NCBI GenBank assembly: GCA_040235515.1
Contig: JBECKX010000109.1
Coordinates: forward strand, 1 to 15,719
Length of the DNA: 15,719 nucleotides
DNA from: Candidatus Zixiibacteriota bacterium
GTDB lineage: Bacteria; Zixibacteria; MSB-5A5; CAIYYT01
Reading direction: 5' to 3'
Both the position numbers and the translations under genes were made by a program. The notes beneath the pieces were generated by a model, which worked only from the letters and a program-made list of their open reading frames with translations, searched no databases and was not told where the DNA came from. Below are positions 1,536 through 14,033 of this stretch, one piece after another. How positions within the stretch are numbered: the stretch's first letter is position 1; each line of letters starts with the position of its first letter.

Positions 1536-1599
1536 CCTCCGGTTAGCGATGAAATACAGGCCGCCTCATGCTCGGATCACATTACCTGGAGAAGATTTG

Positions 1600-3354
1600 A
1601 TGTCGTTATCGATTGCATCGCGGATCACCCGCTTGGCAGCTTCGGTGGGGAAGTTGAGTACCTGCGGACTGCTTGCGTGCATACTCATCGGCACCACGAC
1701 CTTGTTCGCGCAGGCCAACGAGGCAGAATCGCAGCTTCAACAACTGGGCCGCGACTTCCTCCAATTGCAGTTTAACGCCAATCCGGTCTACGCCACCAGC
1801 ATGGGTGAGCACCGCCTCGATAAAGAGTACCCGGAATTCTCCAAGACAGCATTCAACAAACAGATCAACGATTATAAGAGCCTGCGCGGCAAACTGCACA
1901 AGATCAACAATTCTTCGCTCAGCCCCGATGCCCGTATCGACTACCTGCTGTTGGAATCGAACATCAACGAAGAGATCGAAATGCTTGCTAAGGCGATCTC
2001 GGTGCGTGACAATCCCAAACTTTTCTCCAGCACCGCGATCCAGGGAGTGTTTGCTATCCTGATCTCCCCCTCGCTCTCGCAGGAAGAGAAATATGAACGG
2101 ATCATGGCGCGACTCAAGAATCTGCCCGATTTCCTCAAGCAGGCCAGATCACTCCTCGCATCACCACCGGAGTTGTGGGTGGTGCTTGCCGGCCAGGAAC
2201 TCGAAACCGGAGCGGATTTTCTCAGTGATGTCTCGGCGCACTTCATCGAGCAGTTTCCGGACGAACAGGAGGAGATCGAAAATCGCTTCGCCGAAGCTAC
2301 CTCGGCCTTGCTCGACTACGAGGACTTCCTCGGCAACTTCCGTGACCGCGCCGGCCAACCATTTGCCATCGGGCGGGAGGAGTACAATCGCCGACTGAAA
2401 AATAACTTCTTCGTTGATTATGATGTCGACTCGTTGCAGCGACTCGGTGAAGCGATCTTCGCCGATCTCGACCGACGTTACGATTCGCTCGCCAGCGAAA
2501 TCTCGTTCATGCCGATCGAGCGTGACTATGAAGTCTTCGTACCGAAGACCTTTACTCGCCGCGACATCCTCGATTACTACCAGTGGGAAATCAACACCAC
2601 CCGCAATTGGGTGAGCAAGTATGATTATGCTACGATTCCTGCCGAAGTCGGCAACTGCGTCCCGATGGAGATTCCCAAGTTCCTGCGCAATGTCATCAGC
2701 AGCGCGGCATACTATCCCGCCGGACCGTTCGACACCGAGCAGACAGGGTACTTCTTCGTCCAGCCCCTCCCTGACTCGCTTGATGATGCCAACCGCTCGG
2801 CTTATTTCCGCTGGGCTTTCAAGCGCGGCTTCAGAACCACAGTAGTCCACGAGGCATACCCGGGTCACCACCTGCAATTTCAATTAGCCAATATCCACCC
2901 ATCATTGATTCGCCGCATCCAGCGGAACAGTATGATGTCCGAGGGGTGGGCGCTCTACTCCGAACAGGAGATGCTGGACGAGGGATTCTATGAAGATGAT
3001 CCACGTATTCTGCAGAGCGTGCTTGCCGGACAGAGATTCCGCGCCGCCCGGATCATTGTGGATATCAAGCTGCAGACCGGCCAGTTCACCTATCAGCAGG
3101 CAATCGACTGGATGATCGAGAACCTCGATATGCCGCTCGAATTCGTGGAGACGGAAGTCAACCGCTACACGCTCACGCCGCTGCAGCCGATGACCTATCT
3201 TGTTGGTAAACTTCAGATTGAAGCGATTCGCGCTACCTTTGCGGAGGTCATGGGGGAGGATTATTCGCTCAAGCGGTTCCACGACATGATCTTAAGCGAG
3301 GGCACGATTCCTCCGATGCTGATTTATCGCAAAATTAGCGAACAAAATCTCTAG
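1600..3354 (+). CDS. DUF885 domain exported protein (putative metallopeptidase-like)
   Basis: Family motifs HEAYPGHHLQ, EGWALYSE, FRAARIIVD, EVNRY and YLVGK; signal-peptide-like N-terminus ending TLFA-Q; GGAGA at 1588-1592 ahead of ATG 1600. Confidence 0.85.
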   Translation: MSLSIASRITRLAASVGKLSTCGLLACILIGTTTLFAQANEAESQLQQLGRDFLQLQFNANPVYATSMGEHRLDKEYPEFSKTAFNKQINDYKSLRGKLHKINNSSLSPDARIDYLLLESNINEEIEMLAKAISVRDNPKLFSSTAIQGVFAILISPSLSQEEKYERIMARLKNLPDFLKQARSLLASPPELWVVLAGQELETGADFLSDVSAHFIEQFPDEQEEIENRFAEATSALLDYEDFLGNFRDRAGQPFAIGREEYNRRLKNNFFVDYDVDSLQRLGEAIFADLDRRYDSLASEISFMPIERDYEVFVPKTFTRRDILDYYQWEINTTRNWVSKYDYATIPAEVGNCVPMEIPKFLRNVISSAAYYPAGPFDTEQTGYFFVQPLPDSLDDANRSAYFRWAFKRGFRTTVVHEAYPGHHLQFQLANIHPSLIRRIQRNSMMSEGWALYSEQEMLDEGFYEDDPRILQSVLAGQRFRAARIIVDIKLQTGQFTYQQAIDWMIENLDMPLEFVETEVNRYTLTPLQPMTYLVGKLQIEAIRATFAEVMGEDYSLKRFHDMILSEGTIPPMLIYRKISEQNL

Positions 3355-3775
3355 CTCCCGAGCCGGCAGGCTCAACAGCGCGATCAGGCGACACGATTTT
3401 CTCTATCATTCTCCACTCGCCTGCTGAATATTCGCGCACTTCCTACCGATACCTCTAATAGAAAACTATAATTCCATGCCTTGCTCAGGGTTAGGTCTTG
3501 ATGAGCCTCCCGACGATCGGCACGGAATTCGCAGAAACGTAGTCGAAGCAGTAACAGCGGTTCTCGATTCGAAGTTGCAGCTCAGGCAGCAGGCAGACCT
3601 CCGGGTTGTGCTTTTGAATCAAGAGTCACCGATCTCTGCGACAGGGTACGCTGTGATAACACAGGAACAAGCTTAACATTCAGATAAGTCCCGGGACCGG
3701 AACCGATAGGCGCGGCGGAGAGACCGTTCTACGTCGAGAGATCGGGAAGGGCCTGCGGGATTGAGGCTGGCGATC

Positions 3776-4885
3776 ATGGCAAGCAATAGCGTAAAAATCC
3801 TACACACTTCAGAGATCCAGCTCGGGAGAAAATTCCCCCAGCTGGGCAGAGCAGGTGATCTCGTCCGCAGCGCGATCAAGGAGACATTCGAGCGCACTAT
3901 CAAAGTCGCACTCGATGATGGCGTTGATGGTGTCATCATAGCAGGTAATCTCTTTGCGGCAAATTTAGTCTCACGCAATCTGATCGATTTTACGATGCGA
4001 CAGATCGAGAGGCTCGGACGAATCCCCGTCACACTTGTGCCGGGGAATTGTGATGCACTCGACGAAACATCACTCTACAAACACCTCCAACTACGCAGAA
4101 TTCCTAGCAACCTGACTATCCTCGGACTGGAAGGCAGGAAAAAGGTCGATTACCCCAATCTTGGATTCACGGTGCATGGTCTTGCCGCCGGTTCCGGCGC
4201 AGCCCAATTGCCGAGCGTAGGAGAATCGCAGGACAACCTGCAGATTCTTGTGCTTCCCGTTGGTGCTGAGTCGACCGATTCAGGTGAATACCAGCTCTCT
4301 GAACTGGCGCAGCAGGCGGTAGCAGCGGATTGTTTCGACTATATCGCGGTGGGAGGAACTTTCGGGTTCAGCCGCTGGGGAGACAACGTGGTCAGTTCAG
4401 GCTCACCGGAAGGGATCGACTTCGTGCAGGGCGAGCCGGGCAGGGTCGTTCTCGCAGAAATTTCTAGGGAGCGCGTCGATCTCGCGCATCGCGAAGTCGG
4501 CAAACTGAAATGGGTTGATCTGGAATTCCATTCAGACAGCTACCGCTTCACCCTGGAAGTGGAACGCGAACTGCAAAGTCATGTCGATGCCCAGACCGTG
4601 TTGCGTGCCCGTCTCACCGGGCGCCCCACCCGTGACGGCTTCATCGACGTACCGGCGCTGAGACGCCGGTTTGATGACTCGCTCTGCCGCTTCATCGTCA
4701 CCGACGAGCGACAGTTCGATTCCAGCCTGATTGACAATCTCCCCGAAAGCTCAAGCAATCTCGTTAATGAGTTCACGGCATTGGTCAGGGAAGGCTATGA
4801 TAACGCACCTCCGGAATTGCAGGCCGGCTACTTGCAGTCCCTCAGCACCGGCAGGGCACTACTCTCGGGCAAGGATGTGATGTAA
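3776..4885 (+). CDS. SbcD/Mre11/YhaO-like metallophosphoesterase-fold protein, predicted catalytically inactive
   Basis: Family scaffold is recognisable (KILHTSEIQLG, VDGVIIAGNLF, PVTLVPGNCD, FDYIAVGG, SGSPEG) but metal ligands are replaced; GAGG ahead of ATG 3776; stop overlaps the next start (TAATG). Confidence 0.82.
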   Translation: MASNSVKILHTSEIQLGRKFPQLGRAGDLVRSAIKETFERTIKVALDDGVDGVIIAGNLFAANLVSRNLIDFTMRQIERLGRIPVTLVPGNCDALDETSLYKHLQLRRIPSNLTILGLEGRKKVDYPNLGFTVHGLAAGSGAAQLPSVGESQDNLQILVLPVGAESTDSGEYQLSELAQQAVAADCFDYIAVGGTFGFSRWGDNVVSSGSPEGIDFVQGEPGRVVLAEISRERVDLAHREVGKLKWVDLEFHSDSYRFTLEVERELQSHVDAQTVLRARLTGRPTRDGFIDVPALRRRFDDSLCRFIVTDERQFDSSLIDNLPESSSNLVNEFTALVREGYDNAPPELQAGYLQSLSTGRALLSGKDVM

Positions 4886-7026
4886 TGAAGATACTCAGAT
4901 GTGAAGTCAAGCGTTTTGGCTGTTTCAACGACAGCTCCTTCCAATTCCAGGATGGCCTGAACGTTGCCCAGGGTGACAATGACAGCGGGAAATCAATCCT
5001 GGCAGAAGCTCTCCTGACTGTGCTCTTCGCAGAGCCCGGCGCAGCTTCGCCTGAGGCTGAGCAGTTCAAGAGCTGGGGTGAAGAACATCCCTACATGCTT
5101 CACCTCGAATATGAGCACGATGGCCATCGCTTCAGACTGACCAAGGATGTTTCGACCGAGCTTTGCATGCTGGAGGATACCGAGAGCGGTTCAAAGTGGA
5201 ACACCCGCGCCGATGTGCGTGAGAAATTGAACGAAGCCCTCGGGTTCAGTGAACGCGATTTCTATCTCGCCACAGGATTTATGCGTCAGGGCGACCTCGC
5301 CGGCATCGAACGCGGCACCGACCTGATTAAAGACAAGCTTGAGACACTGCTCAACCAGAACAAGGATGAGCTGCTCGCGTCACGTGTCCTCGATAAGCTG
5401 CGCGGTCGTATTACCGAAATCCGCGGCGAAGACAACGATGGCGAAATCCATGCCATCGAAGCCCAGATGACCGTCTGGAGCGCTGAACTGGAGACTGCCC
5501 GTTCAAAGACGGTTGAACTCCATGATGCGCGCCAGAAGCTGCTGCGTGGACGTGACGAAGAAATCAAGGCCAGGGCGGAGTTTGATGAGAAGCTTGAAGT
5601 GTTCAAGAAAAGCAAACTCGCCTTCGAAGCCGGCCAGAATGTCGAGAAAGAGCGCGAAGCCTACCTCGACTTAGGCCGCCGTACACGCGAAGCACAGGAC
5701 ATCCGCGGAATGATCTCCAGCAAGAAGGAATCACTCCGCGCGATGATCAAAGTTGAACGCTCCGATGTCAAATCCGCCGAAGGACTGGCAACCCAGCTCA
5801 AGCTCTACCAGGGCAGGGTCGAGGACCTGCGCGAGCAGAAAGAAGAGAAGCAGCAGGCGATGTACGAAGCCACGCCGGGTCAGTGGTACAAGATCCTGAT
5901 GGTGGTGGCGCTCCTCGGTACCGCCGCAGGCGTGTTCTTCTGGCAGCGTATGGATGACCTGCTCTACCTGGGTTCCGCCGGGGCGGCATTCCTCGTCTCC
6001 CTGATCTCAGTGGGGCTCTGGATTGGCGCCGTCCGCGCTCACTCCGTCGCCAAGGCGCAATTGCTCCAGGTCTCCGAACGACTCAACAAAGAGGTCGAGC
6101 GGATGCAGGAGAATGATGAAAGCCTCAAAGAGTTGCTGAAGAAATTCAAGGCCAAAGCGGCTGACGATCTGGCGGATATGTACGAGGAATACCGTGATCT
6201 CGATCGCGACATCAAGAGCCTCGTCTCACGCTATGAGACGCTCCTCAGCGACAGCAACCTGAAGGACCTCGAGGATGAACTGGAGCAGATGACGCTGCGT
6301 ATGACCGAGCAGCAGCAGATTCTCGAGAAACACCGCGCCTACGCGGTGACCGCGTCCGAGCTTGAGAACATGCAGAAGAAGCTGACCGAGCTCGACAAGA
6401 AGCAGAGTTCACTTCAGGAGGAAAACCAGATCCTCGAACACAAGCTGGAGTTCCTGGAGGCGGGGAGTGACATCCTCGCGCCACTTGAGGAACGCATTAG
6501 CGAAGCCGAAAATGAAATCGCTCTGTTGAATGCCGAAGCTGACCAGGCCGAGATCATGCTCCGCTATCTTGAAGAAGCTCGCCGCAAGGTGCTCAAGTCG
6601 TCGGTGGAACGAGTGGAGGAAGAAGCTTCACGCCTGCTCAACCAGATTACCGGTGCACAATGGTGCAAGCTGACGCTCGACCGCCACACCCTTGAGTGGC
6701 AAATCAGCCGCGACGGCAATACCTGGCACAGCGCCGAGAGCGGACTCTCGACAGGCACCCAGCAATGTGCGTCACTCGCGCTGCGTTTGGCGTTTGTCAG
6801 AGTGCTCTGCGCTGAGGCGCACCCGCCGCTGATCTGTGATGAGCCATTCATGCTGCTTGATAACCCGAGGTCTCAGCAGGCGGCGAATATTCTGCGCGAG
6901 TTTTCCAACGAATACCAGGTGATCATGCTGACTACCGGAACCCGTTTCAAAGAACTGGCGAGTCACTCGCTGCAGGTTGGGAGCAGTTCGCAACAGCATC
7001 AGCACCAGGCCGCACCGACTTACTAG
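4885..7026 (+). CDS. SMC/SbcC/YhaN-like coiled-coil ABC-type ATPase with a central two-helix membrane segment
   Basis: N-terminal KRFGCF, Walker A GDNDSGKS, Q-loop FMRQG, long E/K/L-rich coiled coils, signature LSTGTQQ, Walker B PLICDEPF; two hydrophobic helices at about aa 334-383. Confidence 0.88.
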   Translation: MKILRCEVKRFGCFNDSSFQFQDGLNVAQGDNDSGKSILAEALLTVLFAEPGAASPEAEQFKSWGEEHPYMLHLEYEHDGHRFRLTKDVSTELCMLEDTESGSKWNTRADVREKLNEALGFSERDFYLATGFMRQGDLAGIERGTDLIKDKLETLLNQNKDELLASRVLDKLRGRITEIRGEDNDGEIHAIEAQMTVWSAELETARSKTVELHDARQKLLRGRDEEIKARAEFDEKLEVFKKSKLAFEAGQNVEKEREAYLDLGRRTREAQDIRGMISSKKESLRAMIKVERSDVKSAEGLATQLKLYQGRVEDLREQKEEKQQAMYEATPGQWYKILMVVALLGTAAGVFFWQRMDDLLYLGSAGAAFLVSLISVGLWIGAVRAHSVAKAQLLQVSERLNKEVERMQENDESLKELLKKFKAKAADDLADMYEEYRDLDRDIKSLVSRYETLLSDSNLKDLEDELEQMTLRMTEQQQILEKHRAYAVTASELENMQKKLTELDKKQSSLQEENQILEHKLEFLEAGSDILAPLEERISEAENEIALLNAEADQAEIMLRYLEEARRKVLKSSVERVEEEASRLLNQITGAQWCKLTLDRHTLEWQISRDGNTWHSAESGLSTGTQQCASLALRLAFVRVLCAEAHPPLICDEPFMLLDNPRSQQAANILREFSNEYQVIMLTTGTRFKELASHSLQVGSSSQQHQHQAAPTY

Positions 7027-7098
7027 TCGGCATTCAGTCTGCGCGCCCTGCGTCTGGCGCGGCATAGACCGGCACTGACACCACCGGGGGGAATCCGT

Positions 7099-7127
7099 TT
7101 GCGCGGGTATGGCGCATTCGTTATAAT
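7099..7127 (+). promoter_or_regulatory. Sigma70-type promoter (TTGCGC-N17-TATAAT) for the HIT / HTH-LeuC-like pair
   Basis: Perfect TATAAT at 7122-7127, TTGCGC at 7099-7104, 17-bp spacer, ending 10 nt before ATG 7138. Confidence 0.7.
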
Positions 7128-7137
7128 CCTTCCTATC

Positions 7138-7623
7138 ATGACCAAGCACTTGTTCGCCCCCTGGCGTGGAGACTTTATTCGCGGTCCCAAGGAAAAGGGC
7201 TGCGTTTTTTGTCGTCTGCAGCGCGAGAAAAACGACCGTAAAAATCTGATTCTGCACCGTGCCGAGCACAATTTTGTCATCTTCAACCGTTATCCCTACA
7301 CCTCATCGCACCTGATGATAGTCCCCTTCAAGCATCTCTCCGCCATCGAGAGGGTTAAGCCGGAAGTGCTCAACGAGATGATGGCTCTGTCGCAGTTCTG
7401 CGTGGAGTCAATGAAGCAGGAGTTTTCTCCTCGGGGCTTCAATCTCGGTATGAATATCGGCCGTTCCGCTGGTGCGGGAGTTGCCGGTCATCTGCATTTA
7501 CACATCGTTCCCCGTTGGGCCGGAGACTCCAATTTCATGGCTACCACGGGTGATGTCCGTGTCATCTCGCTCTCACTTGATGACACCTATAAGGCCCTGC
7601 ACAACTATTTCAAGAAACTGTGA
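7138..7623 (+). CDS. HIT family nucleotide hydrolase (Ap4A hydrolase/phosphorylase-like)
   Basis: LFAPWR N-terminus, CVFC, NRYPY, HLMIVP, GFNLGMN, histidine triad HLHLHIVPRW followed by GDSNF. Confidence 0.92.
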   Translation: MTKHLFAPWRGDFIRGPKEKGCVFCRLQREKNDRKNLILHRAEHNFVIFNRYPYTSSHLMIVPFKHLSAIERVKPEVLNEMMALSQFCVESMKQEFSPRGFNLGMNIGRSAGAGVAGHLHLHIVPRWAGDSNFMATTGDVRVISLSLDDTYKALHNYFKKL

Positions 7624-9095
7624 CCAAACGACGCATCCCTACCAAGCGGGAGCTTCAACAACTGCAGAAGCTCTACCGCACCGATAAGAAAATCGGCCAG
7701 GCGCTCGGCGGCGTATCGGAACAACTGGTGGCCTATTGGCGGCGCAAGAAGGGGATCGCGCCCGCGAAGTTTCCCAAATACACTCAGCAGGAAGTGCGAG
7801 ACCTCTGGGAGCGCTTCGGCGATGATGAGAAGGCCGGCCAACAACTAGGGATCACCAAACAGGCCTTCTATCGCTGGCGGAAGAAGTACAACCTGCTTGA
7901 GAAACCGACGATCCTGAAGCTTGAGCAGCTTGAACTCAAATTCTTCGATGAGCAACGCCTCAACCGCACCGGCAGCAACGATCAACCGGCGCAGACCTTC
8001 TTTCAGAAGATTCTCGCCCACCGCTGTGGACAGGCTTTTGTCGCGGTAAGTGACGAAATCGAAGTCCCGATTGACTATGTCCTCAGCATCTCTCCCGCCG
8101 GGATCACGCTCACACCACCCGGTTCCCCGGAGAGTGACAGCAACTCCAACGGCATGCAGCGGACTTTCGATACCTTCGTCGAAATGTTCCATGACGGCTA
8201 CTTCCAGCCGGGGCGGGTGATCATCGCCGATACCGTGGCGGCATCCGCGTTCGCAGTGACCTCTTCATACGTAAAAATATTCGATGCTTCCACAGCAGGC
8301 GCGCTGCGCAAGGGCAACAAGCTATCTGTGGATGTGACCCCCACGGTGAAAGCTATCCTGCCGGCGCTTCCCGCGAGTCGTCGAGCCGCTTTCGATTCCG
8401 CTGTCGCGATCAGCCAGGAACTTGAAAAATATCAGGACAAGCCCTTCAGTGTTGAGATCGCCGGCGCCGGACTCGACCGGATGAATCTGGAAGACCGCAT
8501 GGCGCTGCTCAGCTATGCTTCACTCTTCACCGGGCGCGCCGTGGCGCTCGAGCCTGATCAGGTATACTTGAACTTCCTCAAGACCTACGCGGATCGGCAG
8601 GGGCCAGTACCCTTCTCAGATAAAGCAGTCTACTATCTCGATGAGATCACCGCCCACGTCGATCCCAAACCGGCCATGTTCGACATCGGACGCCGCTGCT
8701 TCATCAGTGGCGCTTCCCACTTCGGCAAGTCCCATCTGAAACGAGTCCGCATCGGTCCGCTTATCTCCGGCTCCGCGGAAGATCTGCATATACTCGCTTC
8801 CGCCCTCAAGCACACTCAGATCCCGGACACGGTCGAGTTGCTGGTAGTGCCATCAGATCGGCAGGCGTATGCCGACGCCCTCAAGCGCCGCTACATTCAC
8901 CGGATTGTTGAAGCGGGGGGCAGGGTGGGTAATGTCGTCAGCTTACCGAAATCGGCTCCGCTGCTGAGGAATGAGTTTGAGCTGACAACGGAATTGTACC
9001 ACACCGGCGATTGGAGCTGTGTGGCATCGATCGAAACGATCGCCCGCGTGCTACAGGAAGGAAAAGTCACGCGCGCCTGCTTCGACCTCAGCTAG
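7620..9095 (+). CDS. Tandem helix-turn-helix protein fused to a degenerate LeuC/HacA (aconitase family large subunit) domain
   Basis: GTG start overlapping the HIT stop (GTGA). Two ~40-aa HTH-like repeats in aa 7-92. From aa 125, segments match the LeuC/HacA order (QTFFQKILA; EIAGAGLDRMNLEDRMAL; EDLHILASALK...VELLVVPS...IVEAGG). Confidence 0.78.
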   Translation: MTKRRIPTKRELQQLQKLYRTDKKIGQALGGVSEQLVAYWRRKKGIAPAKFPKYTQQEVRDLWERFGDDEKAGQQLGITKQAFYRWRKKYNLLEKPTILKLEQLELKFFDEQRLNRTGSNDQPAQTFFQKILAHRCGQAFVAVSDEIEVPIDYVLSISPAGITLTPPGSPESDSNSNGMQRTFDTFVEMFHDGYFQPGRVIIADTVAASAFAVTSSYVKIFDASTAGALRKGNKLSVDVTPTVKAILPALPASRRAAFDSAVAISQELEKYQDKPFSVEIAGAGLDRMNLEDRMALLSYASLFTGRAVALEPDQVYLNFLKTYADRQGPVPFSDKAVYYLDEITAHVDPKPAMFDIGRRCFISGASHFGKSHLKRVRIGPLISGSAEDLHILASALKHTQIPDTVELLVVPSDRQAYADALKRRYIHRIVEAGGRVGNVVSLPKSAPLLRNEFELTTELYHTGDWSCVASIETIARVLQEGKVTRACFDLS

Positions 9096-9107: not shown

Positions 9108-9848
9108 TCAGGCAGGACCATCCACCGCAGGAGCATGGTGCAGCGTGAAGCCCGCGCCATCCCAGCTTACCGCCGTAAAATGCTTCAGCCAATCACCGCA
9201 ATTGACGTAAATGCCTGATTCGAATTCCTTGATCTCGGGATGGTGGAGATGACCGCAGATCACGGCGCTGTAACCCGCGGAGTGCTGCCGGCGGGCATAT
9301 TCGTAGTATTCCTCCAGGAAATTCTGCGGCGGAGTCTGTGCGCCATACTCGCGTGAATCGTGTGAAACCCGCCGCGCCACTCCATACGCCAGGCCCGGAG
9401 GGAGCAGTTTGTAGAGCGCTATATTGATGCGATTGCGCAGCACGCGTTTCAAAATACGATACTTCCAGTCAGATGGCGCGACTCCATCACCATGAATCAC
9501 CAGGACCTTCTGACCGTCGTTGTCCAGCTCCATTTGATCCCGATAGATCTCAAACCCCATTTGATCAGTCATAAAATCGCCGATCCAGAAGTCATGGTTG
9601 CCGCAGACGTAGGATATCTTCACCCCCCGCTCAGCGAACTCCCTCAACCGAAACAAGATATCGAGGTTCCGTTTTGGAACCAGGTCGCGGTACTCGAACC
9701 AGAAATCGAACAGGTCCCCCAGAATCACCAGGTGCTGCAATGCAGATCCTTGAGCTTGCAGAAATGAAGTCAGCCGCTCGCAGGTAGCGTGTTCGATCTT
9801 TGGATCGCGTGCACCAAAATGAAAATCGGAGACAAAGTAAGTTGCCAT
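9108..9848 (-). CDS. lpxH: UDP-2,3-diacylglucosamine diphosphatase-like (LpxH family) calcineurin-like phosphoesterase
   Basis: Intact motifs VSDFHFG, LGDLFDFWFEY, GNHDF, IHGDG, GHLHHP and NCGDW; start at ATG 9848 (MATYF) rather than 10001. Confidence 0.8.
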   Translation of the reverse strand: MATYFVSDFHFGARDPKIEHATCERLTSFLQAQGSALQHLVILGDLFDFWFEYRDLVPKRNLDILFRLREFAERGVKISYVCGNHDFWIGDFMTDQMGFEIYRDQMELDNDGQKVLVIHGDGVAPSDWKYRILKRVLRNRINIALYKLLPPGLAYGVARRVSHDSREYGAQTPPQNFLEEYYEYARRQHSAGYSAVICGHLHHPEIKEFESGIYVNCGDWLKHFTAVSWDGAGFTLHHAPAVDGPA

Positions 9849-9855
9849 CCTCGCG

Positions 9856-9883
9856 AATCTACCCCAAAGGACCGATTTGGCAA
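9856..9883 (-). promoter_or_regulatory. Putative sigma70-type promoter of the lpxH-like gene (TTGCCA-N16-TAGATT)
   Basis: Minus-strand TTGCCA at 9883-9878 and TAGATT at 9861-9856, ending 7 nt before ATG 9848. Confidence 0.55.
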
Positions 9884-10096
9884 AGTCAAAACTGCGCTTT
9901 GAGGGCTCGCGGAGAGGGCAAAAAAAAGTACAGATTTTGCTACAAAATTGCTCCGTGAGAGTTAAGCAAACATGTGCAAGTCCGATAACATTAAGTGACA
10001 CAAACTTGTAAGAGCAAATTCAATGGAAGGTGCTTACCAAGACTTCAGGACGAAGTAACCGTAACTTTCATTTTCGCATTGCGAAAGGAGCAACGA

Positions 10097-10387
10097 ATGA
10101 ATCGCAGGAGAAGAACTTCCTCAGCCCGTAAGAGCAGACGCTCAACGATGAGCACCCGCTCACGCGCCCGCAAGACGACCACCCGTCGTTTTTCCGGCAA
10201 CAGCACCAACAAAGTTTGGACCCGGTCTGAGATCGCCACTCTGCGCAAGATCTATCGCACCAACTCAAACATGGATATCGCCAAGAAGCTTGGCCGTTCC
10301 GAAGGTTCGGTCCAGTACAAGGCTTCCAGTCTGGGTCTGCGCAAGAGCGCTAGCTACCTGAAGCAGATTCGTAACAACTGGTCGTAA
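10097..10387 (+). CDS. Small highly basic protein: Arg/Ser/Thr-rich N-terminal tail plus Myb/GcrA-like HTH
   Basis: Strong SD AAGGAG at 10085-10090; 96 aa; HTH pattern WTRSEIATLRKIY...DIAKKLGRSEGSVQYKASSLGL; followed by an intrinsic terminator. Confidence 0.85.
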   Translation: MNRRRRTSSARKSRRSTMSTRSRARKTTTRRFSGNSTNKVWTRSEIATLRKIYRTNSNMDIAKKLGRSEGSVQYKASSLGLRKSASYLKQIRNNWS

Positions 10388-13028: not shown

Positions 13029-14033
13029 ATGGCAGACCATCTTGTTACTCTCATAGAAGGGGACGGCATCGGCCCCGAAATCAGCAGAGCCACGATCAGG
13101 ATCATCGACGCCACCGGGGTGGAGGTGGAATGGGAACGCCTCCCCGCAGGCATCAACGCAATCCCCGACTACGGCTCACCGGTGCCGGATCAGTTGCTTG
13201 AGTCGATCAAGCGCAATAAAGTAGCCCTCAAAGGCCCGCTGACGACATTCGTCGCCAAAGGTTTTTCCTCCGCCAATGTCGGCTTGCGCAAGGCGCTCGA
13301 CCTCTACGCCAACCTGCGCCCCGTCCATTCGATTGAGGGTGTCAAATCTCGTTACGAGGACGTTGACCTGATCATCGTGCGCGAAAACACCGAGGATCTC
13401 TACGCCGGTCTCGAACACCTGATCGCCCCCGGCGTCTCCGAATCGATCAAAGTGATCACGCATCACGCGTCGACCCGTATCGGCAAGTTTGCCTTTGAGT
13501 ACGCCCGTAAGCATGGCCGCAAGAAAGTTACAGCGGTGCACAAGGCCAACATCATGAAGCTCTCCGACGGCATGTTCCTCGATTCGATCGCCAAGGTTGC
13601 CGAGGAGTATCCCGACATAAAATTCGACGATGTCATAGTTGATGCGCTCGCGATGAAGATGGTGATCAATCCGAACCAGTTCGATATCCTCGTGCTCTCG
13701 AATCTTTATGGCGATATCATCTCCGATCTCGCCGCCGGATTGGTGGGGGGGCTCGGAATGGTGCCCGGCGCCAATATCGGCGAGGGCTGCGCTGTGTTCG
13801 AGGCAGTGCATGGTTCCGCGCCCGACATCGCGGGCAAAGGGATCGCCAATCCTTCGGCGCTCCTCTTCTCAGGAGTCTTGATGCTGCGTCATCTTGGTGA
13901 AGACCAGGCAGCCGACCGTGTGATGCGTGCTGTGGAGAGGGTTTACCGCGAGGGTAAAGTCCTCACGGGTGACCTCGGCGGCACCGCCACCACCGAACAA
14001 TTCGCGGATGAGGTGATCCGGCAAATGGGGTAG
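13029..14033 (+). CDS. Isocitrate/isopropylmalate dehydrogenase family enzyme, probably NAD-dependent isocitrate dehydrogenase
   Basis: IEGDGIGPEI, LKGPLTT, SANVGLRK (isocitrate-type Ser-x-Asn), RENTEDLY, VHKANIMK, NLYGDIISDL, HGSAPDIAG (Asp-Ile indicates NAD preference); SD AAGGAG at 13010-13015. Confidence 0.88.
   Translation: MADHLVTLIEGDGIGPEISRATIRIIDATGVEVEWERLPAGINAIPDYGSPVPDQLLESIKRNKVALKGPLTTFVAKGFSSANVGLRKALDLYANLRPVHSIEGVKSRYEDVDLIIVRENTEDLYAGLEHLIAPGVSESIKVITHHASTRIGKFAFEYARKHGRKKVTAVHKANIMKLSDGMFLDSIAKVAEEYPDIKFDDVIVDALAMKMVINPNQFDILVLSNLYGDIISDLAAGLVGGLGMVPGANIGEGCAVFEAVHGSAPDIAGKGIANPSALLFSGVLMLRHLGEDQAADRVMRAVERVYREGKVLTGDLGGTATTEQFADEVIRQMG

Follow-up and report, generated by a model that had tools for sequence, protein, structure and literature searches.

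The present study analyzes one gene in a stretch of 15,719 nucleotides (nt), called the window throughout (contig JBECKX010000109.1 of assembly GCA_040235515.1), from an uncultured bacterium of the phylum Zixibacteria (Candidatus Zixiibacteriota). The gene (7620..9095; 491 amino acids (aa) plus stop, GTG start) encodes a tandem helix-turn-helix (HTH) head fused to a body with the large-subunit fold of the LeuC/HacA enzymes, and it lies directly behind a gene of the HIT family; both are on the plus strand. Patterns detected are, taken as a whole, best explained by a DNA-binding pseudoenzyme derived from an HTH-LeuC/LeuD enzyme and most likely acting as a transcription regulator, an explanation we hold with moderate confidence, and the protein is probably an undescribed case of a regulator made from an enzyme.

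A preceding sequence-only reading had described an uninterrupted open reading frame (ORF) with two N-terminal HTH units, a polar linker and a LeuC-like part in which the diagnostic motifs were replaced by other strings. The frame is indeed open from end to end and every quoted string lies at its given place in the translation (units at aa 7-46 and 54-92, IIADTVA at 201-207, VGNVVSLP at 436-443, LTTELYH at 455-461). In structure models HTH unit 1 (7644..7751, aa 9-44) consists of helices 9-19, 22-28 and 34-44 and terminates in an invariant YWRRKK, and unit 2 (7785..7886, aa 56-89), with helices 56-66, 69-76 and 80-89, ends in AFYRWRKKY, which resembles a recognition helix. The pair is followed by a near-invariant helix, P-x-x-LKLEQLEL (7908..7934, aa 96-105), and then by the linker (7935..7994, aa 106-125), which is polar as had been read, poorly conserved, and modeled with low confidence (pLDDT approximately 50 over aa 100-120, dropping under 50 at aa 112-116). 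The remainder (7995..9092, aa 126-491) is the pseudo-LeuC/HacA domain, without cluster ligands and without catalytic motifs. The full-length AlphaFold2 model, built from a 91-sequence alignment, has pLDDT 88.4 and pTM 0.76. The head is basic, with 25 lysines and arginines in 105 residues and an isoelectric point (pI) of 10.16, compared with a pI of 6.15 for the body.

The LeuC/HacA-fold body and its lost active site

Collinearity of the C-terminal part with LeuC/HacA was confirmed, although the relationship is distant. Among NCBIfam profiles, PRK00402 aligned its positions 106-355 (of 415) with aa 190-438 of the target at E 4.6e-17 and 61.8 bits (cut-off 385), and IPMI_arch and hacA_fam reached 60.7 bits (cut-off 410) and 55.9 bits (cut-off 386). 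The Pfam Aconitase profile PF00330 gave 20.5 bits, under its cut-off of 28.7, and a PF00330 search of the whole genome did not return the target gene at E ≤ 0.001. A sequence search of solved structures placed the large subunits of isopropylmalate/citramalate isomerase and homoaconitase from M. jannaschii first (4kp1_A, E 4.7e-6), in an alignment that sets igplisgsaedl opposite igsctngrledl. Foldseek of the model returned 4kp2_A at E 2.6e-24 (TM 0.66 on the target, 434 columns) and 4kp1 at E 7.3e-23, with further matches to mitochondrial aconitase (approximately E 1e-15), to IRP1 (3snp_A, E 2.7e-11; 2b3x, E 5.7e-10) and to aconitase X. The target therefore has the three-domain alpha/beta large-subunit fold of aconitase and isopropylmalate isomerase and remains under the cut-offs of the curated family profiles.

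For the active site, relatives were collected by scanning prokaryotic genomes, one for each species, with a pattern. The scan yielded 182, and 80 loci were retained. The proteins of these loci were aligned with the window protein, database protein P0096 and five canonical enzymes, and the ligand and catalytic columns were tabulated. The catalytic motifs of such enzymes are H-D, G-x-D-S-H-T and T-x-N-R-N-F...R, and their positions were read from the intact P0096 and L083 in the same alignment. In the target the three cluster-cysteine columns are L, S and K, so that no [4Fe-4S] ligand is left; the D-S-H columns are T, V and A, the H-D columns are I-S, and the NRNF stretch is deleted, bearing out the claim that all ligands and catalytic motifs are missing. 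The loop IGPLISG (8751..8771, aa 378-384) stands in these alignments in place of the first cluster-cysteine loop, GSCTNG, and the target's four cysteines (136, 360, 467, 487) fall outside the ligand columns. The window is also free of a LeuD-like small subunit, as had been stated, with an Aconitase_C match in 0 of 12 ORFs scanned. All three Aconitase_C matches of the genome lie within fused aconitase-family ORFs on other contigs, one homoaconitase and two aconitate hydratases, all above NCBIfam cut-offs. Judged from alignment and model, the body is an isomerase large-subunit fold that should no longer be able to hold [4Fe-4S] or to catalyze dehydration.

Alternatively, the protein might have remained an enzyme and taken up in the old pocket a new chemistry that needs no cluster. 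The window's clade does have conserved body motifs of its own, EPDQ (310-313), PFSDK (330-334), LxRxR(I/V)GP..G (373-384, which includes RxRIGP) and ELTTE (454-458), the third of which sits at the former cysteine loop and includes conserved arginines 375 and 377. But this would not account for the change of every known catalytic and ligand column, the deletion of the NRNF segment, or the absence of the small subunit needed for a complete active site, and the clades differ in their replacement residues, which would be unexpected for one new active site; we regard continued catalysis as highly improbable. Cluster-free aconitases are known RNA binders, and the IRP1 chains among the fold matches might suggest an RNA-binding protein of the IRP1 or apo-aconitase kind. 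However, the RNA grip of IRP1 needs domains 1-3 together with domain 4, and neither target nor window has a domain 4 (Aconitase_C) or a LeuD partner, so the four-domain IRP1-type architecture is absent; moreover, the nucleic-acid-type module that the target does have is an HTH_23 pair, of the DNA-binding kind, and an IRP1-like role is very unlikely.

Relatives from intact to dead and constraint across the phylum

The sequence-only reading had raised the question of whether some homologues keep the cysteines, and some do. Ten of the 81 rows (the window protein and the 80 locus proteins) were incomplete at the tabulated columns, and among the 71 scorable rows 34, including the target, kept no ligand cysteine, 23 kept one, 7 kept two and 7 kept all three. 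Only L062 and L083, along with P0096, have SHD, GTDSHT, GSCTNGR, PGCGPCLG and TTNRNFKGRM all together, and the fused protein of L083 is a full member of PRK00402 at 591.9 bits, compared with 61.8 for the target. In L083 the next gene downstream encodes LeuD (LEUD_arch, 205.7 bits), and LeuD also comes after the fused gene in L062, L064 and L079, giving 4 of the 68 loci where the target is complete and 300 nt or more of downstream sequence is available. In a FastTree phylogeny of 69 rows, from which 13 truncated or mis-started rows were left out, the three-cysteine rows were confined to one 11-row clade, and the window fell in a 15-row clade on a long branch, ligand-free save for one residual cysteine in L016. 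Which single cysteine is retained varies among the other clades, in keeping with partial loss on several independent occasions, and LeuD appears to have been lost together with the active site. The survival of intact HTH-LeuC forms with LeuD thus argues for an enzyme-to-pseudoenzyme history of the family. The label "trigger enzyme" may fit the L062 and L083 relatives on the strength of their motifs and their LeuD, but not the target, which has lost all catalytic columns and with them the retained catalysis that the term implies. In the five genomes whose fused form is intact or nearly so (G201-G205), Pfam Aconitase also matches elsewhere, namely a separate frame of 424-443 aa in G201, G202, G204 and G205 and one of 643-652 aa in G203, G204 and G205, both typed by length only; because these further frames exist, the fused gene is a paralogue even where it looks active.

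The distribution of the family was assessed in 201 genomes of the window's phylum, searched with the N-terminal module. It was found in 194 of 201 genomes, in 177 of the 180 of high quality and in 107 of 108 genera, with one match per carrier, and the window's own genome has a single copy of the target. A database search gave 161 relatives of the same architecture, and those named by organism are mostly from Zixibacteria. Whether the fusion is conserved had been set out as a check, and these two samples answer it in the affirmative. The relatives go under the names hypothetical, aconitase family protein, 3-isopropylmalate dehydratase large subunit and transposase-like, and because of such names, metabolic reconstructions of this uncultured phylum may be counting a leucine-pathway enzyme that is unable to work. 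In three genomes of one genus (G100, G102, G116) the N-terminal match contains one TAA, which is not found in four other genomes of that genus; since the TAA-bearing matches begin two residues further upstream, this TAA is probably where the overlapping HIT gene stops and not a break.

Constraint is distributed very unevenly along the protein. Identity of the target to distant members (48 rows) is 63% in the head and 21% in the body, and to its own clade (14 rows) 77% and 39%, and at least 93% conservation in the 15-row clade is seen at 63 of 105 head positions versus 54 of 366 body positions. Against the 72% orthologue in L010, nonsynonymous divergence (dN) amounts to 0.032 in the head and 0.274 in the body; for neighboring genes in the same comparison it is 0.089 (HIT), 0.055 (the isocitrate-dehydrogenase-like gene), 0.157 (SbcC) and 0.233 (SbcD). 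In these comparisons the head rather than the enzyme body appears to bear most of the constraint, and, because its dN falls in the range of the neighboring genes, the body appears to evolve like an ordinary constrained gene and not a pseudogene, so that purifying selection, which had been proposed as a check, is upheld as far as dN can show it. The missing motifs could in principle mean a decaying gene or an assembly chimera, the case of a fusion unique to this assembly that the sequence-only reading itself had named as fatal, but nothing else speaks for decay, and open frames of similar length throughout the phylum, the database proteins of the same architecture and a body dN like that of SbcC and SbcD leave it a negligible chance.

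The HTH head, the HIT partner and the case for a regulator

The proposal of a tandem HTH N-terminus stood as to fold and failed as to sequence repetition. HTH_23 (PF13384) scored 27.7 bits on aa 1-110 scanned alone (cut-off 24.6, at aa 71-91) and 22.8 bits, under that cut-off, on the full-length protein, and it matched 41 of 47 family N-termini at E ≤ 0.01. Full-length and N-terminal models (the latter with pLDDT 89.3) agree on two three-helix bundles of HTH type with the helix limits given above. BLASTP of unit 1 against unit 2 gave zero alignment, however, and the two are structural repeats without a recognizable sequence repeat. P96, L99, Q103 and L104 are invariant among 91 sequences, LKLEQLEL belongs to a helix at 97-108 in the N-terminal model, and the head has the family-specific invariant motifs YRTD, YWRRKK, LWERxGDD and LKLEQLEL. 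Fold matches of the head, although weak, are all to tri-helical DNA binders (Mos1/SETMAR paired-like domains, the DUX4 double homeodomain, a mycobacteriophage repressor, GcrA), and a protein-atlas feature search with aa 1-110 gave a best score of 0.77, below the 0.9 lead threshold, with generic HTH_23 clusters as the family-bearing matches. The high pI and the invariant WRRKK and WR..Y helices are indirect signs that the head may bind DNA. The head query also retrieved proteins (270-770 aa) in which 4-8 HTH_23-type units stand in tandem (P0147, P0153, P0154, P0163, P0182, P0190, P0261), one of which, P0190, additionally bears TFIIB repeats and a TFIIB zinc ribbon.

A conserved head on a divergent body could also be that of an architectural or RNA-polymerase-associated DNA-binding protein without a small-molecule ligand, in which the body is a bulky scaffold or oligomerization domain. 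The very high conservation of the head, the status of a single-copy core gene and the tolerance of extreme divergence by the body, as seen in the counts of conserved positions above, would all be expected of it. Against it, the fold and length of the body are kept phylum-wide and there are clade motifs at the former cluster loop, with arginines 375 and 377, a motif pattern more readily explained by a pocket or interface that has been kept than by inert bulk, and we consider an architectural role unlikely.

The gene immediately upstream (7138..7623; 161 aa from ATG 7138; Pfam HIT, E 2.4e-14) encodes a HIT protein of the diadenosine tetraphosphate (Ap4A) phosphorylase/ATP-adenylyltransferase type. 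The ORF as listed from TTG 7099 probably begins too early, this TTG belonging to the TTGCGC of a putative promoter, and ATG 7138 is likelier. The protein scored 126.5 bits on NCBIfam NF052622 (cut-off 290), and its family profile matched 6af2_A at 1.4e-41 and the Ap4A phosphorylase 3ano_A at 8.6e-41; H118, H120 and H122, which form the HxHxH triad, as well as C22, C25 and APWR, are invariant in 45 sequences. By tblastn all related loci (80 of 80) have a HIT homologue immediately before the target and on its strand; ORF-based neighbor clustering recovered it in 66, a gap that stems from the 90-aa and overlap filters and from contig ends. In 76 of 80 loci the target starts -8 to +20 nt from where the HIT alignment ends; L083 has a gap of 75 nt, and the other three are start-rule artefacts. 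In the window the GTG start of the target (7620-7622) overlaps the TGA stop of HIT (7621-7623) as GTGA (7620..7623), which suggests translational coupling of the two. HIT is the only universal neighbor, the next clusters being an LpxH-like phosphoesterase (33 loci) and DUF885 (28 loci). The LpxH-like gene (9108..10001, minus strand; Pfam Metallophos_2; PRK05340 at 111 bits, below its cut-off of 134), which is downstream on the opposite strand in 29 of those 33 loci, is the next gene downstream of the target, and because it is convergent the unit would consist of two genes. A 669-aa frame in L023 that looked like an in-frame fusion of HIT and target was rejected as an artefact of the start-codon rule, HIT lying in another frame.

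The putative promoter of the pair (7099..7127), found by eye, consists of TTGCGC (7099-7104), a 17-nt spacer and TATAAT (7122-7127), and its -10 box ends 10 nt before the HIT ATG. Boxes like TATAAT, TATACT or TATATT lie roughly 7-11 nt before that ATG in most of 77 upstream regions (by eye, untallied), and no Shine-Dalgarno sequence is visible by eye in these regions. The closeness of the -10-like box suggests that the first cistron, HIT, has a leaderless or near-leaderless transcript.

The constancy of this pairing could alternatively mean that the target is a DNA- or RNA-targeting or regulatory subunit of the HIT enzyme, with the pseudo-LeuC body docking HIT, perhaps on the former LeuD face, and the head either carrying the nucleotide chemistry of HIT to nucleic acid or tying DNA binding to the levels of Ap4A or adenylate. 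Besides being the sole universal neighbor, with the GTGA overlap, HIT keeps its catalytic histidines invariant and is retained where LeuD is gone, conservation of the head exceeds even that of HIT (63% vs 42-50% identity in distant loci), and SbcCD lies just upstream in the window's clade; aprataxin, a HIT enzyme with a DNA-binding part of its own, follows a similar logic. Conserved adjacency does not prove contact, however, and the intact members carry both HIT and LeuD, so that HIT is no simple replacement for LeuD. The nearest solved HIT relatives, furthermore, use free dinucleotides and not nucleic-acid ends, and the SbcCD synteny is confined to 15-17 loci. Complex prediction with full-length target and HIT (a 45-row alignment for each) scored 0.00 in both runs with the controls unfolded, and weighs neither way. 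We take the subunit explanation to be rather unlikely. A bolder proposal, which we offer as a doubtful speculation, is that tandem-HTH pseudo-LeuC and HIT form one phylum-wide machine, in which HIT, or its dinucleotide substrate or product, is bound by the dead pocket or by the former LeuD face, and the level of Ap4A or adenylate is read out directly on DNA by the almost invariant double-HTH head. If this were true, the phylum would have a core, possibly global, regulator or a nucleic-acid-directed HIT system made from a leucine-pathway-type enzyme, with living intermediates from active enzyme to pure pseudoenzyme.

Several observations weigh against a transcription regulator as the role of the target. 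The 63% identity of the head across the phylum appears unusually high for the HTH of a one-component regulator, and such conservation may point to a conserved macromolecular partner, for example RNA polymerase, a nucleic-acid structure or HIT, over a diverging operator. An operator search in the 150 nt upstream of HIT in the 77 loci found no DNA target beyond promoter-like elements; the recurrent elements were the -35 and -10 boxes plus clade-specific -35 extensions, TTATTCCGTTTGCG in the window's clade and AGAAACCATTTG in the three-cysteine clade, and in these regions an operator is not separable from the promoter, the only conserved element resembling the promoter itself. A sigma-70 promoter scan did not report the 7099-7127 site, the first hexamer of which matches at 3 of 6 positions. 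Foldseek of the head returned nothing at E ≤ 0.001, its best two-unit matches being 5hoo_B (E 0.058, probability 0.87) and 7s03_A, and VIA-align gave Z 5.9 for 7tz1_A and Z 5.0 for the DNA-binding domain of GcrA (5yiu_A), a range common for helical models. Nei-Gojobori synonymous divergence (dS) was saturated for the whole gene against L010, the only close orthologue, leaving the overall dN/dS undefined; it is defined in two short windows, at 0.126 for aa 246-305 and 0.055 for the linker. Three DNA runs of one sediment-metagenome study contain 0.28-0.46 of the sampled sequence words, and no RNA run with these words was listed. Because the head is more conserved than the usual regulator HTH, both the architectural explanation and that of a nucleic-acid-targeting HIT subunit stay alive.

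The regulator derived from an enzyme nevertheless remains the explanation we prefer, and a mechanism may be proposed for it. The ancestor would have been a trigger-enzyme-like HTH-LeuC/LeuD hydro-lyase, already fused and already behind HIT, and catalysis and LeuD would have been lost repeatedly in later lineages, since the genomes checked also contain an aconitase and, in four of the five with intact or near-intact forms, a LeuC-type gene of its own standing; selection would have kept the DNA-binding role. In this genome the target would act as a transcription regulator co-expressed with HIT, with at least its own HIT operon as a candidate target, and the dead body could serve as a sensor, a dimerization module or a docking module for a partner.

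Wider gene order is a feature of the window's clade. Upstream of the HIT pair (window 1549-7026; loci L010-L027) are DUF885, SbcD-like and SbcC-like genes, preceded in the window and in four of those loci by an RlmD-like TRAM methyltransferase, and an inverted repeat rich in GC lies after the sbcC stop, at approximately 7041-7062 (by eye). The downstream side has the LpxH-like gene, genes for a flippase and a BtrH_N/DUF4872 protein, and an NAD-isocitrate-dehydrogenase-like gene of the Iso_dh family (13029-14033, plus strand), which scored 429.9 bits on TIGR00175, just below the cut-off of 432.4, and also scored high on homoisocitrate and isopropylmalate dehydrogenase models. As its proximity is clade-level synteny only (11-13 loci), no functional link between this gene and the dead LeuC is seen. 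A small, very basic protein (9995-10387, plus strand; probably starting at an internal ATG near 10097), with an N-terminus rich in R, K, S and T, was given no family by Pfam and NCBIfam scans. Its C-terminal 60 aa (WTRSEIATLRKIYRTN..IAKKLGRS) aligned to HTH unit 1 by hhalign with a probability of 54%, E 1.3e-4 and 31% identity over 55 columns. In 17 related loci, segments of 35-117 aa (mostly approximately 65 aa) that match the protein with 57-91% identity lie two genes downstream. The protein may thus be a free-standing relative with this type of HTH.

Comparison with known systems

A full-text literature search, supplements excluded, found nothing on this family and no aconitase- or LeuC-fold regulator with a dedicated HTH, and we know of no report linking this HIT type to an aconitase-fold protein. 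The family would be a clear natural series from enzyme to DNA-binding pseudoenzyme, in which fusion came first and was followed by stepwise, independent loss of ligands, catalytic residues and small subunit, while the head and the HIT partner stayed fixed throughout. A functional link to HIT would in addition be a new connection of Ap4A-type nucleotide chemistry to DNA binding.

The partner resembles Rv2613c-type Ap4A phosphorylases (3ano, 3wo5; also 6af2), which its profile matches at approximately 1e-41 and with which it shares HxHxH, but it remains below the cut-off of the NCBIfam equivalog. The head recalls the Mos1/SETMAR mariner transposases and DUX4, which likewise have two tandem tri-helical units, but the target has no transposase domain and the fold matches are weak. 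IRP1 or apo-aconitase is likewise a protein of the aconitase superfamily with a regulatory, non-catalytic role; IRP1 keeps its cysteines, four domains and a reversible switch, whereas the site of the target is permanently lost, domain 4 is absent and a dedicated HTH is present. The archaeal-type LeuC/HacA of M. jannaschii (4kp1, 4nqy, 4kp2) has the same fold and is collinear with the entire body of the target, which differs from it in lacking the cluster cysteines, the DSH, HD and NRNF residues and LeuD, and in adding the 105-aa HTH head that canonical enzymes lack.

The closest parallel in kind is with regulators derived from enzymes. PutA, BirA and MocR/GabR are enzymes turned regulators or trigger enzymes. 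BzdR, according to a report on it (PMC3602430), joins an HTH to a shikimate-kinase-like domain, an enzyme fold recruited as a regulator. Such systems likewise carry a DNA-binding domain on an enzyme fold and, like the present family, have extant forms ranging from active enzyme to regulator only. The target differs from them in that its head and not its sensor is the most conserved part, and in being a phylum-wide, single-copy core gene locked to HIT.

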